64,000 nt of DNA, from assembly GCF_003704095.1 (NCBI RefSeq), contig NW_020847572.1, positions 372,001 through 436,000 of the forward strand, in the 5' to 3' direction. Positions 53,322 to 63,888 of the stretch are shown here, piece after piece. Within the stretch, counting starts at the first letter, position 1. Every line of letters starts with the position of its first letter. The notes beneath the pieces were generated by a model. It did no database searches and was not told where the DNA came from. It saw only the letters and a program-made list of their open reading frames with translations. The translations under genes were made by a program, and so were the position numbers. This stretch comes from Pocillopora damicornis (lineage: Eukaryota).

Positions 53322-53621
53322 CATATGAAAGTCACGCTTAACAAAAGGCTCTATCGGATATTGCGTAACACCCGCTGTGACCCGACTGACTAAAGAATCT
53401 GCGAATTTTAGAGGATTTCGCTCTCTCTCTCTTTCGTTTAAAGAACGTTATCGTTCTGTTACCTCCAGATTATAAAAGTAAAATCTTTAGGCTTTACGTA
53501 GAGGTGAAAATTATACCGGTAAACAATAATCTTGTACTGGCAAATAAATATTTCGTGTTGCTGACTTGCGATATTTTACGAAGCTTTGACTTCATTTTTC
53601 GAGATTGGGGAAAGACTCTGG
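53322..53621 (+). mobile_element. Second, truncated copy of the left end of the RAG1-like transposon
   Basis: Direct repeat of 55137-55433, roughly 90% identical by eye. Homology starts at catatgaaagtcac and runs into the N gap at 53622. Confidence 0.85.
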
Positions 53622-54709
53622 NNNNNNNNNNNNNNNNNNNNNNNNNNNNNNNNNNNNNNNNNNNNNNNNNNNNNNNNNNNNNNNNNNNNNNNNNNNNNNN
53701 NNNNNNNNNNNNNNNNNNNNNGATGGAATGAAGGCTACGATGTTATACTTCAGTTTCAGTCCAAATTGTTTTAGTCTAACAAAAAATACCCTTAATTTGT
53801 TTCAATTTAAGGAAGACTCCAAAGAATGAAAACACGTCACGGCAAAACTAAATTTCTTAAGCATCCTTCGTCGGAAAACAAGAAGCCCAACATAGGTTAA
53901 GTTGACCATGATTGCCGCAGATTTACCACGGGTTAATACCAGGCGATGTGCGCACTCTGATTGTGATGCATTGTAGTAGCGATATTTTCAATATGGCGGT
54001 GAAAGCGGCAGAAATCTGCAGATTTGGACAGAGCTTTCCGTAAAAGTTAGGTTGTTCCTTTTTTTCTGTCACCATAGGTACACGATATTTGATTGATTTT
54101 GAATGTGTAGAAGAATTTTTTGTACGTATGTGTCGCGTATTCAATGGTTCTCAAGGAGAAACGCAATTATTGTTTTTTAGAATGTAACTTGAGACCAGTT
54201 TTCGAGAAGGTCAAATTTGATGTACGTCGTTGTTTGAAGCCTTTCAAAAATTTGAATGGCCGCTTTGGTCCTCTTTAACAGCTCTGACTAAATGCTCTCG
54301 AATGCTCTCCAACGGTACACGTGTTTATGCATTTTAAGTGATAGTGTTTGAGACCGGTCATGGCCGCAAAAGGCCTATTGTTGTGTTTAGTGTATTGCGT
54401 TACACAGCGTTACCATTGTAAGGACATCCATGTATATTCAATCGTGTTGTAAATCTACTTTCCTAAGTAAAAGCAAATTAATTAATCACGAGTATTGTAT
54501 GGTAAATCTACTATCTTGATCACTGAATGAAGGACAGTTGAATTAGAGCAGTGAAAGGAATCACTTGACCAATGAGTAACTCTACATTGCACGAGACGAC
54601 ACGCCGGGTAAACCGGAGAGCACAAGGCAGCGCAGCAGCCGACCTTTAAAAGGTGTTGATAGGCTTGTGCGACTCTTGCCATCCGCTAACGCTTGGAAAT
54701 CTTCTGCCC

Positions 54710-55030: not shown

Positions 55031-55554
55031 ATGATGACACGAAAAAAGGTTAGTGTATCAGAAGGTCTTTTTAATGCTTTTAATATAAGACTCACGTCTA
55101 GGAATGTATTTTCTGAATTTTTTATTATTCACACAGCATATGAAAGTCACGCTCAACGAAAGGCTCTATCGGATATTGCGTGACACCCGCCGTGACCCGA
55201 CTGACCAAAGAATCTGCGAATTTTAGAAGATTTCGCTCTCTCTCTCTCATTTAAAGAATGTTATCGTTCTGTTACCTCCAGATTATGAAAGAAAAATATT
55301 TAGGCTTTACGTAGAGGTGTGAATTATACCGGTAAACAATAATCTTGTACTGGCAAATAAATCTTTTGTGTTGCTGACTCGCGATATTTTATGAAGCTTT
55401 GACCTCATTTTTCGAGATGGGGAAAGACTCTGGGCCGAGGTTTCTACAACGCATGCTGCCATCTGCGCGTTACCGCCAAATTTGAAAAGAATAATAAATT
55501 CCGCGTATTTTGATGTATAATTCATTAGGGTACGGTTAAGTTTCGGCCTGGCAA

Positions 55555-58061
55555 ATGGGCCTTGAAGTCAACGCTTTAGTTCTATTTCTGCTGCTGACCT
55601 TTGTAAACAGCGCGAGTGCGATATAAGAGGAATTCGAGCGAGCAGAACCCGGAGATGTCCCTTCATTTACATACGAAATAAACAAGTAAGTATCTATTCA
55701 AGCTTAGTTAATTTATTCGAAGATTCATTGTGTTAAAGAGCCTTTTCGTCTTGTTTTGTAGCTACCTCATCTATTCAGTCTGTAAGGAACTAGAAGGGAA
55801 AATCGACGACTTAAGTACCGAGTCCGCTTCGTCGCCAAGAATAAAAAGAATTTTCGAAGAGTCTGCGCTAATGTAATCATCAACAGTCGTATTGTTAATG
55901 TCTTCAAGAAGAAAATTTCGCTTCTTCTCTCGGCATTGAAGAAAGCTGGTCAAAAAGGCAGTCGCCATGTTAAGAAGCTTAAGGAAAAATGGCAGAAAGA
56001 AGCGTACTCATTCAAGGTATTTTATGATGAAATTGAAACATGACAGCTACACCAGGAGAACAGGGGTGTGCGTGGACAAAAGAGAAAGCTGGAAGCATCC
56101 CTCACAAATGAACAGGCGAAAAGGCTAAAGGTAGAAGAGAAACTCGAACAGGTACTTAAGAAGACAGAAAAGAAGGATGAAAACTACAAAAAGAAATTTA
56201 AGATTCTAGCGCGTAAAATTGCAAAACTATAGAGAGATGGAAAGAGAGGGCCGGACAAAAAGAAAAAATTTATCGATTATACGAAACCGCATCAGTCACG
56301 TCTTCGACAACAGATGAAGGAAAACTGTCAGCCAAAACTATCCTTCCTTGGATTGAATGATTTTATTGCCACAAAAGTAGAAGTTTTCAATGGCGAAACT
56401 CAACAGTACGAGACATTTCCTTGATTGATCAAAACGAGCTTCCACTAAAGGACAACGACTCAACGGAACTGACAGATGAAAATTTGGGTGACATTAATAT
56501 GTGGATCTATATTAAAGATAGATTTCAAATGAGGCTTGGCATGAGTTGGCCACGAAAACCAAACAGATGCCAAACAATTATAAAACAGAGAAGAAATTAA
56601 AGGACTTTAATGCAAAATGGGATCTCCAACCCACACCTGGCCAAGCCAAAGGAGTCCAGTTGGGTTTTAAAGAATGTTTAGAGGAACAAGTAATCAGGCT
56701 TCAGGGGAAAGGAGTTTTTAACATGAACACAAAAATCAAAGTTAAAATTAGTGGGGATGGGACTAACATTGGCAAAATGCTCAAAATTGTTAATGTACCT
56801 TACACAATATTAAATGAAAGAGATATTGCAATGAGTGAAAAAGGCAACTATATTCTTGCCATAATCAAAACTACTGTAAGCTATGATAATTTAAAGGCAA
56901 GCATTGCAGATCTTAATGATGAAATGCTGAATTTAAAGGAATTGTGTGGGTGATTATAAATATGACATTGAATACTTTTTGGGAGGGGATTGGAAGTTCT
57001 TAGCTTATGTGTGTGGTTTGGGTGCAGCAAATCTTGTATTTGGTGCAAGTGTCCCAGGAGTGAAAGGTTTGATGCAACAAGAAGTGGTCCCTCACAGACA
57101 GGTCCCTTGGTGTAAGATCATGTGAAGAAATAACCAGCAATGCAAAATCTGAGAAGTTTAATTGTAAATCAGAGCCTTTATTTTCTTTTGTTCAAATTGA
57201 TCATGTCATGATTGACAAACTTCACTTATTTTTGAGGATTTCTGACAACTTGATTGAGCTTCTTATCCAGCAACTTTGTAGGGAAGATGCTATAGATGAA
57301 GTGAAAACTTTTCCTAGTGGATTTACAAGGGAGAAATATAAACATATGGCTGGATATGAAAAGTTTCTGAAGAACATTGGTATTTCCTTTGACTGGAGTA
57401 AACAAAGACTCCAAGAAATTAGAATATAGAGACCTTACTGGACCAGACAAACTGCTTGTTATGCAAAGCATAAATTTCCAATCACTCCTTCCCAACTTCA
57501 AGCAAACTAAAGAAGTGGAGAAACTATGGGCCAGTTTTATGGAAATTATTGGAGACCTGAAGCTTGAGTTTACAACTGATGATGCTATCACTCAGTTAAC
57601 AAATAATCATGGTTTGATAAGTCTCTATGCTTGTATCAAGCCAAAGATGTTACCCCATACATGCATGCACTATATGCTCATTGCCTGAATTCTTAAAACT
57701 CTATTTAAACATATCCTATTTTACAAAACAAGGAGAGGAAAAATATAATGATACTGCAACCAAACACTATTTTAGATCCTCAAATCATAGGGGAATTTCT
57801 GCTCTAAAACAGATTCTCTTGAAGAAAAATAGAATACAGCTCTTAGAAGCAGCTGGCATGGAGAGAATAAAGAAAAGTTACAAGTGTAGGAATTGTGAAG
57901 GTCTTGGTCATACCATAAAGACATGCTCTGCTAACTGTATGAAATGCCAGACTGCAGTTTGTTGTGCACACCCTATTAAAGTTGATGGAAGGTGGACACA
58001 GATGTACATTGTAAATTTCTCTCTATTGACTTTAACTTTGAGGGCTTGGCTTCCTAGTTGA
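55555..58061 (+). pseudogene. RAG1/Transib-like DDE transposase pseudogene (multiple stops and frameshifts)
   Basis: Reconstructed across frames: RGPDKKKKFIDYTKPHQSRLRQ (NBD-like, ~56245-56310); WIYIKDRFQ..NEAWHELA (DDBD-like); KIKVKISGDG (D at 56756); YFLGGDWKFL (D at 56988); CIWC (57035-57046); IDKLHLFLRI; LTGPDK; VTPYMHALYAH.PEFL; FTKQGEEKYN (E at 57738); CRNCEGLGHTIKTC (57885-57926). The order matches RAG1 D600, D708, C727/C730, H937/H942 and E962. The 5' boundary is uncertain (possible exon 55555-55685 and intron 55686-55761). Confidence 0.85.
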
Positions 58062-58283
58062 CATGTTGATTACTGTAAATATAAATAAATGTAATATCTA
58101 TGGTTAGTTAAGATATTCCAAAACTCTTTAAACTTTAGTGTAAACAAATGTTTTCATTCACTCAATTTCAATAATTAACTGACAACTATTATAAATTGAT
58201 AATAAAATATATTCAAACAACAATAACTGTAGATGTGTGATTGTGATTAACTCTTTAATTTAGCAGTCCCCCCTTGTTATGTA

Positions 58284-58967
58284 CTAATGTCTATTTCCAT
58301 CTCCACGAACAAAAGTAAAAACAAGCTGATGGTCATCTTCAATTTCTGACCTCACATACTTTCCCCCTATGAGCTTGTATTCTATTATAGGGTTCCTTTC
58401 TGTAAACCAAAATCTCACAGTTCCTTCTGTCACATAAGCATAATCACCATTTGCGTTTAAAATCCATCCATCCCATATGACCCCCAGAAAGGTGTCTAGG
58501 TCGTGATTACAAATCCGATAGACTTGCTTGTTTCTTTCCCTTCTTGCGCGAGCAACAATACTCACTTCGAAAACATCCTCTTCCACAGGAATTTCAATCC
58601 TGATTTCTGGATCGTACTTCCTTCCAGAGTATAGTTTACGCTTCACTTCCCCACACATGCGGTCTTGGAAGAGATGCAAACGATCGTCTATAGATTCCAT
58701 GGATGGTGTAAATTTATGTTCCAATCGCACAATAGTAAAGGTTTTACCATCATATGGCCTCCATTCGTCGAATTTATCACTAAATCCGTTAAACTGTATT
58801 TTTACTCGCTAGCCTTCTTTGTCGACCTCTTCCAACGCAATTTCGTAAAGGCGATTGTCCTTTTGACGCTTTGGCATTCCGCCCTTATCAGCTACAGCTT
58901 TTAACGGGTTTATTTCATTGATTAATCGCTTTGGGGCTTTGATTTCTCTTTCCACTCTGGCCGCCAT
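58284..58967 (-). pseudogene. Transposon ORF2: ~227-aa protein with an N-terminal chromo-barrel/Tudor-knot-like motif and one premature stop
   Basis: ATG in a strong aaacATGGCG context at 58967. ORFs 58809-59030 and 58284-58730 share a frame and are separated by a single TAG (58809-58811). Read-through gives LYEIALEEVDKEG*RVKIQFNGFSDKFDEWRPY, matching the chromo-barrel pattern Y..(V/I)HY.G(W/F/Y)...DEW. Confidence 0.7.
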
Positions 58968-59112
58968 GTTTGTTTTTATCATTCGCGCATTAAACTCTTG
59001 GTCATTCGCGAGAGTTTGGAGAGCCTGCAAGTTGAAGCAAATGTTAACCCTTGTATGAAATAACTTTAATATGCATCGGCTGTGAATGTAACTGCTGTCG
59101 TTTGTGTATATT

Positions 59113-59474
59113 AGGGACCTTAAGCAGTCGAGACGGCAACCCCAAGGAAGAATTCGTTTAAAACATAAATTGCTGCCTTTGATTAGAATTTAAAAAATGG
59201 CTACATTTATTCACCGTCTCATACAGCGTCACACTTCAGCATAACGTATAAAAGAAGCTTCGAGTTCCAAATGGAAATTAAAATAATTTGCCGTTGCGGT
59301 TTCGGTTCGCAGACGACGCAAATTGAGGTGATTTCTCGTTGCTGTTTTGCCTAGGGAGGCTAACAAATGTACTAAGTTTTAAAACGCACGTGCTGAGCTA
59401 TTGTTTCGCCAATTAGATCTTTTATTTTTCCATGTCCTTGTTGCCGTCGCCGTCGTGGTTTGCTTAGGGTTCCT
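59113..59474. mobile_element. MITE (362 bp), probably PIF/Harbinger-type
   Basis: TIRs AGGGACCTTAAGCA / TGCTTAGGGTTCCT plus subterminal gacggcaac/gttgccgtc. ATT is duplicated on both flanks (59110-59112 and 59475-59477). Confidence 0.7.
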
Positions 59475-59994
59475 ATTCTTAGGCAGGACTGCAGTCTCGA
59501 TTCTTTCTGAATCTCGTCAGTTGCCTCGAAACGGAGGAACGACAAGAATCGCGCAGGCCTGTAAACACTTTTTAACTTTCGAAGGAACGGCAACAGACGA
59601 TGAATCCTCATTGCATTCCACTTATATTCACGCCACCTCGCTGCCACCAAAGGTTCACTTGATCGCGACAAGTGCAACTGACTCATATTTTGTGTTGCGA
59701 CCATGATGCAACGCGATCAGAGTACGCATACCGCGTAGACCGAGCAGAATTAGAAAGGCAATCACAATCAAGATATTGTTTGAAGGTTTTAAATTACATC
59801 CTTACCTCCAACCACAAATTTGCATTAAATTTAAAGAATTTGCACGCCGAACTTCACAGCGCAAAACAAAGGTACGAGAAAAAGGTTTTAATCGTTAAAA
59901 TACTCGAAATTGCCGATGTGTGATGAAAGTCTATCGCTACTTCTTTCAAGGGAAAACAAAGTGTACATTAGCTACATGTATGTTAGCGCTATTG

Positions 59995-60295
59995 TTACTC
60001 ACATGTTCTTTGTCCGTTTTAGTTTCTGGCGATTTCTGCCGTTTCAAGCTTGTTTTGCCAGTGATGGCAAAACAAGCTTAAGACGGCTGAAATCGCCAGA
60101 AACTACAACGGACACACAACATGTGAATAAGTTCCGTTGATTTTACGCGCAGAATGTTCATATTTCGAAATATTTGCCGGTGGTGGCGAAATAAGCTTAA
60201 AACGGCGGAAATCATCAGAAACTACCACGGACACACAATTTGTGAGTAAGTTCTATTGATTTAATGCGTAGAATGTTCATATATCGAAACATTTA
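59995..60295. repeat. Foldback palindrome (~66-bp arms centred ~60062) plus a 119-bp-period tandem duplication
   Basis: 59995-60060 is the reverse complement of 60065-60130. 60054-60172 is repeated, diverged, at 60173-60292. Confidence 0.85.
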
Positions 60296-61043: not shown

Positions 61044-61480
61044 AGAATGAGGATGGTGACCACGGATTGAAAACAGAACTGTCCTTTCTTTACGTAGTTT
61101 TCAGCTACACGGCTCTATACTAGGATGTCTAACCTAAAAAGGTTACCATTCTAAGTTAAATGTTTACAGACGTTCACTTAAACAGTTGTCAAGGTCAGCC
61201 TTCATCCATGCTGTGTGACCTTATGGCCGAGACCCCCGATTGACCCGACTCGAAAGGGCGAGAATGAGGATGGTGACCATGGATTGAAAACAGAACTGTC
61301 CTTTCTTTACGTAGTTTTCAGCTACACGGCTCTATACTAGGATGTCTAACCGAAAAAGGTTACCATTCTAAGTTAAATGTTTACAGACGTTCACTTAAAC
61401 AGTTGTCAAGGTCAGCCTTCATCCATGCTGTGTGACCTTATGGCCGAGACCCCCGATTGACCCGACTCGAAAGGGCGAGA
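61044..61480. repeat. Near-perfect 217-bp tandem duplication
   Basis: 61044-61260 and 61261-61477 differ at two positions seen by eye (cac/cat, cctaa/ccgaa). aga microhomology at the junctions. Confidence 0.95.
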
Positions 61481-62932: not shown

Positions 62933-63118
62933 CCCTCTAACTCCCAGAAGTGATTGACAAATTACTTCTACCTACAATTTACAGGTAATGAGAATGCTCA
63001 AATGTATTAGGCAAAAGTTGTTATCTCGATCTAACATCAAATTCTCGTAACTGATTTACAAGGAAATTTGTAGCAGCTAGAGGGGAGAACTAACAATCAG
63101 ATCTTGGGAGTTAAAGGG
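62933..63118. mobile_element. piggyBac-type MITE (186 bp)
   Basis: TIRs CCCTCTAACTCCCA / TGGGAGTTAAAGGG (one mismatch). Perfect TTAA TSD at 62929-62932 and 63119-63122. Confidence 0.85.
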
Positions 63119-63153
63119 TTAAACCAATTAATATCACTTTCATTTCACAGATC

Positions 63154-63717
63154 ATGTCGACGTTTATCTTTACGTCTGCAAGGAGGCAGTCATCTCGTCT
63201 CCGCCATGTCAGTCCGATAAAACTGGCTACTTCCTATTTCTTGTCTACAAAAATAAGATCAGTAACAGGCAGTATTTTTGAGCGAATTCCTAAAGAGGAG
63301 CTGGCACCGAAAACCAGACCACGGCTGCGAGACAGGGAGTTTCTCCCAGGCTCAACGGGTGAAGGATTCCCAGAGTTCTTGGCGGAGCCAAGTGACTCTT
63401 TCCCGCACGGAGTGCGAGTCAATACTAGAGACCAGTCCTCTATCTCAGAACTGGGTGCAAATTGCATGAAATACATAAAGGAAAACCTTACTGATAGCCA
63501 GGCGATATTGTTCCGCGGACTTCCAGTTGAAACAGCAGAGGACTTCTTGGCCTTAACCGAAGGAATGCGAGGCAAGCCTCTGAACTACGAGGGTGGTACT
63601 TCACCCAGACCCAAGGAAATAGAAAATTCTGATATCTACTTTGCCAGTGCTGAGCCTGGAGCGTACACCATCGAGTTACACAATGAAATGGCGTATCTCG
63701 AGACTTTCCCCAGGAAG
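63154..63717 (+). CDS. TauD/TfdA-family (clavaminate synthase-like / DdaC-like) Fe(II)/2-oxoglutarate dioxygenase, first coding exon; gene continues past the window
   Basis: Acceptor ttcatttcacag at 63150, immediately before atcATG. Motifs AILFRGLPV..AEDF, YEGGTSPR, EP..YTIELHNEMAY (H-x-E iron ligands) and FP.K. Donor AAG|gtattt after 63717. The Arg/Ser-rich, acid-free N-terminus resembles a mitochondrial transit peptide. Confidence 0.85.
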
Positions 63718-63888
63718 GTATTTTCATGATAAAACACAGACGACTAATGCTGAGGCACCAGGGTATTTTCTGGGCGCTCCAAACATCAGCAAAACTTCCA
63801 CTAGGTTTACGATGCGCTATTGTTAATTCAGTAGTTCTTTCACTCATGTGTACGTTCCTTCATTCGTGGATACTGTGGTGTACTTTGG

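Follow-up and report, generated by a model that had tools for sequence, protein, structure and literature searches.

A coral DNA transposon carrying a predicted RAG1/Transib-fold transposase and a convergent Royal-domain gene

In a 64,000-nucleotide stretch of the Pocillopora damicornis genome (NCBI RefSeq assembly GCF_003704095.1, contig NW_020847572.1, positions 372,001 to 436,000; here, the window), two short open reading frames on the minus strand raised the questions of whether they are remnants of one gene, what that gene encodes, and to what it belongs. A preliminary description had joined them by reading through a TAG at 58809 to 58811. With this TAG read as X the frames fuse, and intact full-length homologues have Lys at the position, confirming a single gene, ORF2 (58260 to 58967, minus strand; 235 codons). 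The intact homologues P0002, P0004, and P0005 are 83%, 78%, and 67% identical to the window ORF2, and a search with the read-through protein returned 55 matches among 305 candidates, many of them full length, with a gene model of Stylophora pistillata (83%) at the top. Two other early impressions did not hold. The gene had been credited with only one visible lesion, but the TAG at 58284 to 58286 is also premature (homologues have Gln there, and the true end is a TAA at 58260 to 58262), and the copy further carries a 2-codon deletion and substitutions at conserved sites. Two stops and several damaging changes likewise give no support to the suggestion that ORF2 in this copy had been under longer selection.

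The element and its copies

ORF2 is the second gene of a dead DNA transposon of 3,937 bp (55137 to 59073) that sits inside an older host repeat. Based on the points at which similarity between copies stops and on 10 paralogous copies of the host repeat that are empty, we delimited the element by a left terminal inverted repeat (TIR), CATATGAAAGT (55137 to 55147, plus strand), and a right one, CATATTAAAGT (59063 to 59073, minus strand), which is like the left at 10 of 11 positions. At the point where copy-to-copy similarity stops, the consensus end on both sides reads CATAT(C/G/T)AAA(C/G)T. The host repeat occupies 55080 to 55136 on the left of the insertion and resumes at 59074 to 59112 on the right, one base short relative to the empty copies. 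An alternative placement at 55148 to 59084, with CAC-type ends and an almost complete 5-bp duplication, seemed plausible initially but was rejected once the copies and empty sites placed the ends at CATAT.

A related TIR pattern had 79 matches in the genome and 1 in the control, often as facing pairs ∼1.1 kb apart, a count that covers mainly one subfamily because the pattern was drawn from copies already seen. The facing pairs are nonautonomous copies. The ∼1.1-kb nonautonomous copies L152 to L169 are 89 to 97% alike and retain the 5′ region of ORF1, and copy L170 has two right ends. ORF2 without a nearby ORF1 was found at L092, L093, L105, L110, L117, and L118, some of which are internal deletions. 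Tandem, nested, or head-to-head clusters are frequent among the copies (L051 at G000:C120, L052, L053, and L055) and may reflect local hopping.

Within the window, positions 53322 to 53621 hold a second copy of the left 300 bp of the element (93% alike), which abuts an assembly gap (53622 to 53721) and represents either a truncated insertion or an assembly duplicate. Pieces of the window, including both junctions, were recovered in DNA contigs from 4 runs; among the pieces listed, none spans the whole stretch and none is an allelic empty site. RNA runs shared 0.31 to 0.49 of words with the stretch, which we did not count as expression. To the right of the element lie a very common short repeat (59113 to 59480) and then, in the order listed, a hairpin-rich 119-bp tandem repeat (59995 to 60294) and a 217-bp tandem duplication (61044 to 61480), followed by an exon of a TauD/TfdA dioxygenase (63115 to 63729, plus strand; Pfam E value, 1.5e-6), an ordinary host gene.

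The association of the two genes extends beyond this copy. Among 37 metagenome loci located with ORF2 (some of them near-duplicates), 20 have ORF1 on the opposite strand downstream of ORF2, including 17 of the 20 in which at least 1 kb of downstream sequence is present; the genes are convergent in all 20 loci that hold both, and 3 of the 20 informative loci have ORF2 without ORF1, although several loci are near-identical and these counts are thus not independent. The comparison of substitution rates among copies that had been proposed at the outset showed purifying selection on ORF2, with dN/dS of 0.10, 0.12, and 0.18 in three unsaturated between-subfamily pairs. A single close pair, both deleted copies, gave 0.62, and saturation affected most of the 45 ORF2 pairs (median pN, 0.33; median pS, 0.81). 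The one unsaturated between-subfamily pair available for ORF1 gave a dN/dS of 0.10. Distances in ORF1 and ORF2 covary (rho, 0.62; 136 pairs from 18 elements; permutation p, 0.0005), a pattern that joint inheritance alone predicts and that therefore shows joint inheritance rather than coevolution. We conclude that ORF2 is almost certainly a selected part of a real transposon.

The encoded proteins

ORF1, on the plus strand, is divided by a conserved phase-2 GT-AG intron (55686 to 55761) that is 76 bp long here and 76 to 105 bp in relatives; it was found in 7 distinct copies, and RefSeq models XP_058946493.1 and XP_058971406.2 contain its spliced junction. Exon 1 (55555 to 55685) encodes a signal-peptide-like hydrophobic N terminus and an acidic linker and contains one premature stop, whereas exon 2 (55762 to 58001) encodes the putative transposase and is interrupted by frameshifts and stops. 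Exon 2 was recognized by tblastn with P0057, an intact 766-aa relative with 86% identity across the query, by the predicted fold of that protein, and by its motifs. P0057 had no transposase match in Pfam or among PDB sequences, and no sequence-level match of ORF1 to RAG1 was found in these searches. The P0057 model (mean pLDDT, 64.8; core, 80 to 95) nevertheless matched RAG1 with a Foldseek E value of 7.8e-11 and a VIA Z score of 20.3 (rmsd, 4.2 Å; 367 aligned), compared with VIA Z scores of 17.5 for BbRAG1L, 11 to 17 for HzTransib, and ≤6.7 for Hermes. Residues D340, D418, C437/C440, H650/H655, and E675 (P0057 numbering) are 96 to 100% conserved. A C-x2-C-x3-GH-x4-C tail (57885 to 57926, plus strand), which corresponds to the CTT* motif defined for invertebrate RAG1L in the accessible text of PMC7204232, occurs in 37 of 45 long homologues. 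Based on the model, ORF1 is predicted to be a transposase with the fold of Transib and of RAG1, the enzyme that rearranges antibody genes.

The hydrophobic start of ORF1 is shared by the two RefSeq models and by most of 11 copies, some of which are frameshifted. The signal-peptide-like segment itself (55555 to 55623, plus strand) also appears in L089, L093, L125, L161, P0519, and P0547, and thereby in several subfamilies, with an 11-residue hydropathy of 2.6 to 3.2. Such a start is odd for a nuclear enzyme; it might serve as a membrane tether or divert the protein, and it has no explanation under the cofactor model set out below.

The N-terminal part of ORF2 (58719 to 58856, minus strand; bounds approximate) had been likened to chromo-barrel or Tudor-knot domains of the MOF/Tip60/MRG15 type. 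Assignment to the Royal family stands, but Pfam and profile E values place the domain nearer to MBT repeats and to the first Tudor domain (Tudor1) of PHF20/PHF20L1. The read-through protein of the window matched 0 Pfam families at an E value of ≤1, PF11717 (Tudor-knot) included, and the Royal-family signal emerges only with intact homologues. Of 46 aligned ORF2 members, 24 matched MBT (best E value, 3e-4) and 3 matched Tudor-knot (best E value, 0.0015). The ORF2 family profile ranked L3MBTL3 first (3e-10, summed over repeats), followed by L3MBTL1, PHF20 (8e-5), and PHF20L1 (3e-3), with MRG15 (9e-3), MOF (0.026), Tip60 (1.1), and Esa1 all lower. The ESM Atlas gave no usable match, only MRG-type leads at 0.75 to 0.77 that we set aside. 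In an AlphaFold model of the intact P0005 (mean pLDDT, 76.6), a disordered basic tail precedes a small barrel (residues 42 to 90), for which the best VIA row was PHF20L1 Tudor1 (6l0x; Z score, 4.3; rmsd, 1.7 Å; 45 aligned), tied with other Royal domains. Per domain the Royal match is weak, with best values of Z 4.3 in VIA and E 3e-4 in Pfam.

An ungapped alignment to PHF20L1 sets the family residues Y, Y/F, Y/F/W, Y/F, and E against cage residues Y29, F47, W50, Y54, and E56, which touch methyl-lysine in the solved complex as described in the accessible text of bioRxiv 10.1101/2020.04.29.069500. Of 101 rows, 87 have residues at all four aromatic columns, and these carry four aromatics in 66, three in 19, and two in 2 cases. 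The cage aromatics and a downstream Asp-Glu-Trp are retained among proteins that are only ∼25% identical. PHF20L1 D23/Y24 has no clear equivalent, a nearby Asp in 37 of 86 rows being two residues off register. ORF2 thus has the Royal fold and five cage positions in common with PHF20L1 Tudor1 and the L3MBTL MBT repeats but differs from them in being a lone small domain on a transposon protein, with a shorter D23/Y24 loop. The replacement of the usual His by Gln, also highlighted in the preliminary description, is real in the window copy but is not a family trait, as His occupies the position in 91 of the 100 rows that are not gapped at it; judging from the alignment, the change is decay within the lineage of this copy.

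The remaining ∼145 aa of ORF2 (58263 to 58700, minus strand; bounds approximate) had been described as unrecognized and as neither kelch nor PHD, which our results bear out: the region is too short for a kelch propeller, has no PHD pattern, and is modeled as mixed alpha/beta. The P0005 model is confident across this alpha/beta domain (residues ∼99 to 240), and K115, W174, R177, N180, and D184 (P0005 numbering) are near-invariant (94 to 99% of 105 to 107 rows), along with conserved Leu and Gly residues. No conserved Cys/His pattern was found in the ∼235 aa of ORF2. Fold searches with the C-terminal domain found nothing in PDB Foldseek or among viral structures, and the best row of the wide VIA search had a Z score of 3.8; the domain was folded only within the whole protein, so the missing match is no proof of a new fold.

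The two genes have named relatives in stony corals, an octocoral, and the sponge Dysidea avara. A profile search of ORF2 against 1.84 billion representatives yielded 568 clusters at an E value of ≤1e-10 and 1,291 at ≤0.001; among the matches listed at ≤1e-10, many are full-length two-domain proteins, and the weaker matches may arise through the Royal domain alone. In viral contigs, none of 46 and none of 42 pattern matches were confirmed. Across 185,579 prokaryote species genomes, in a scan sensitive to close relatives only, 1 of 9 pattern matches passed an E value of 1e-3, and this one carries the search motif without the neighboring motifs of the family.

Insertion junctions and a proposed role for ORF2

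The junctions of 22 two-ended copies gave no target duplication beyond chance. The longest exact junction repeat was 0, 1, 2, or 3 bp in 13, 7, 1, and 1 copies (15.5, 4.3, 1.6, and 0.5 for mismatched flanks), with no exact repeat of at least 4 bp in any of the 22, and a 5-bp repeat with one mismatch allowed was seen in 3. A TA duplication of the ESTA type occurred at 1 of the 22 copies, which is chance level. A candidate 2-bp GC duplication was rejected after comparison with other copies. No fixed target sequence was apparent in 58 flanks.

At 11 of the 22 sites the element lies in a repeat for which an empty paralog spans the site, and none of the reliable empty sites shows a duplication. The empty paralog was instead one base longer at 7 of the 11 sites; among 206 control windows placed outside junctions, a +1 difference was seen in 6. 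The 7 sites are those of the window copy (10 of 10 paralogs), L156 (3 of 3), L165 (5 of 5, leaving out one row that was a self-match to the element end), L157, L162, L163, and L169. The empty paralog was two bases longer at L155 and equal in length at L153 and L167; L154 was ambiguous, with paralogs <77% alike, and flank searches for L164 found no paralog. The lost base varies from site to site. Insertion usually removes one target base, a claim that rests on paralogs, as the empty sites are paralogous rather than allelic.

The element is a two-gene TIR transposon that makes no target duplication and whose transposase is predicted to have the RAG1/Transib fold; we consider it moderately probable that ORF2 serves this transposase as a cofactor that reads chromatin and guides or licenses transposition. 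ORF1 would bind the element ends, where its CCGHC tail would recognize the AAA block in the manner of RAG1L, and would cut using D340, D418, and E675 (P0057 numbering). By analogy with RAG1L-RAG2L, the ORF2 cage would bind a methylated lysine, probably mono- or dimethylated, on a histone tail, and ORF2 would tie transposition to chromatin state. Its C-terminal domain may contact ORF1 or DNA, taking the role of the RAG2 PHD with an unrelated fold, and a candidate docking site on ORF1 is the region equivalent to the RAG2-binding helices of RAG1. In DDE transposases, the duplication is as long as the offset, or stagger, of the two strand-transfer attacks, such that zero stagger produces a clean insertion; a one-base 3′ overlap leaves flaps, the removal of which deletes one base. 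The two ends of the coral element may attack the target strands with no stagger or with a slightly negative one (a 1-nt 3′ overlap), with repair trimming one target base rather than filling in a duplication.

A rather unlikely alternative to this cofactor role is that ORF2 acts outside the transpososome as a regulator or anti-silencing factor, reading repressive or active marks on the chromatin of the element itself and sustaining or dampening ORF1 expression. Linkage, purifying selection, and cage conservation fit such a regulator equally well, and some internally deleted copies (L092, L093, L110, and L118) retain ORF2 and have lost ORF1; nothing speaks directly against it, but the RAG1 fold, the CCGHC tail, and the convergent layout recall RAG1L-RAG2L, in which the partner is a structural cofactor according to the accessible text of PMC7204232.

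It is more doubtful that the ligand of the Royal domain is a nucleic acid (DNA, nucleosomal DNA, or RNA) and not methyl-lysine, which would make ORF2 a DNA-binding partner. The Myb protein of Harbinger is an analogue for such a partner. ORF2 has a basic N-terminal tail and basic stretches in its C-terminal domain, and the PHF20L1 Tudor binds DNA, preferring it over methyl marks on nucleosomes, according to the title of a 2026 report (PMC13285377). DNA binding would not, however, by itself require four cage aromatics and an Asp-Glu-Trp kept at ∼25% identity.

We regard it as improbable that the C-terminal domain is an enzyme or end-processing factor responsible for the one-base loss. The near-invariant K115, W174, R177, N180, and D184 could make an active site, and an odd junction and an odd domain do meet in one element, but the searches returned no enzyme family or fold match and an altered strand-transfer stagger accounts for the junction without a second enzyme. 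The notion that ORF2 is a passively carried fragment of a host gene, or that the two genes are chance neighbors, is largely refuted, for although the Royal domain ultimately comes from a host gene of the MBT/PHF20 type, one layout persists across subfamilies saturated at synonymous sites, dN/dS is 0.10 to 0.18, and many of the proteins listed from the 568 profile clusters have both domains at full length.

Under the favored cofactor reading, a second, independent RAG1-type transposase with a convergent histone-reader gene would make the acquisition of RAG2 (both why and how it happened) open to testing. The loss of a target base at DDE transposon insertions, in place of the duplication of several, would extend the known geometry of strand transfer. 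Lacking a target duplication, such elements would be missed by searches that require one, such as the RAGL survey described in the accessible text of PMC7204232.

The "bacterial" Transib and known systems

Tao et al. (2022; PMC9435367) counted 42 bacterial proteins, rooted the RAG1/Transib tree ahead of a bacterial branch, and found the region equivalent to the RAG2-binding helices of RAG1 retained in "bacterial" Transib; a later model repeats the bacterial descent of Transib/RAG (PMC10629977, accessible text). Three ORF1 motifs each had one match in the accessible part of the PMC9435367 supplement, and in each case it was CthTransib_0091, on a 4.6-kb contig from an uncultured SUP05 bin. This record carries the ORF1 family motifs GGDWKF, HLFLR, LTGPEK, and PYMH and the CCGHC tail, and the transposase of one family member has in this way been published under a different label. 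By eye, rather than with an aligner, we also found on the contig a convergent ORF2 homologue at ∼1220 to 1939, an end, CATATCAAA, at ∼1097, upstream of that homologue, and the GT-AG intron of the coral family, after the EIN codons. The ORF2 homologue looks closer to the Dysidea protein P0344 than to the coral proteins. The published account, in its accessible portion, differs in annotating one gene (the ORF2 homologue is not annotated), in proposing another 3′ TIR, close to base 401, and in holding the element to be bacterial. The stored proteins lacked CthTransib motifs, with the exception of a single shared motif present in 11 of them.

Given its spliceosomal-type intron, its Royal domain, its animal relatives, and the lack of a confirmed prokaryote relative in the close-relative scan, CthTransib_0091, and this record specifically, is very probably animal host DNA in a symbiont bin. 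The motifs of a second "bacterial" record, CthTransib_0066, are related to those of the family but more distant (SGDG, GGDMKF, DELHLLLR, and PYMH); it is perhaps a sister lineage and is likely eukaryotic too. We found no published challenge to the bacterial Transib claim in the literature outside most subscription journals. These observations put the published bacterial descent of Transib and RAG (PMC9435367) in question. The broadest reading combines a superfamily-level, RAG1-related lineage of corals and sponges that arrived independently at a RAG-like two-gene design (with a Royal-family methyl-lysine reader in place of RAG2) and a negative-stagger, one-base deletion with a "bacterial ancestor" that is a mis-binned animal element, leaving the root unsupported; we advance this combination tentatively, as possible but falling a little short of probable.

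Among known systems, the element most resembles ProtoRAG/RAGL (PMC7204232 and PMC10629977, accessible text), with which it has in common a RAG1-fold core, the C-x2-C-x3-GH-x4-C tail, a convergent gene pair between TIRs, a partner-gene domain of the histone-reader type, and an AAA block in the TIR. It differs in that the ProtoRAG/RAGL partner described there consists of a six-bladed kelch domain and a PHD, whereas ORF2 is a 235-aa Royal plus alpha/beta protein, and in that RAGL and Transib have CAC ends and a 5-bp duplication, in contrast to CATAT ends and no 5-bp duplication here. ORF1 is 12 to 18% identical to RAG1/BbRAG1L and has an N-terminal hydrophobic segment and coiled coil rather than zinc fingers. 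Without kelch or PHD, CAC ends, or a 5-bp duplication, the element shares the layout of ProtoRAG but does not belong to that group. A TIR, CATATCAAACT, is similar to the protostome RAGL consensus CACTWMCAAACK as given in the accessible source, with the AAA block one base closer to the end. Cnidarian RAG1-like proteins ∼30% identical to RAG1, and thus closer to it than the coral ORF1 family, are described in the accessible text of PMC1131882.

Classical Transib, with a single ORF, CAC ends, and a 5-bp duplication, differs in lacking a second conserved gene. The C(2)C and H(3-4)H motifs of the CMCT clade (here C437/C440 and H650/H655, 97 to 100% conserved) and its 5′-CA..TG-3′ termini are present in the coral element, but the 2- to 5-bp target duplication stated for the clade in the accessible text of PMC12730594 is absent. 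Of the systems compared, only Spy (PMC4122938, accessible text) is likewise a TIR/DDE transposon without target duplication. Spy is IS5/PIF related, and its insertions fall exactly between AAA and TTT and leave the target unaltered; unlike Spy, the coral element has a RAG1 fold and varied flanks and usually removes one base. We found no account of the element, of its ORF2, or of the loss of 1 bp of target in the literature outside Repbase Reports and most subscription journals. Set against the literature rather than Repbase or Dfam, and with Lanisha (PMC8245031) compared by name only, the element is apparently an undescribed variant of the RAG1/Transib kind and, if so, would be a side branch of the RAG family.
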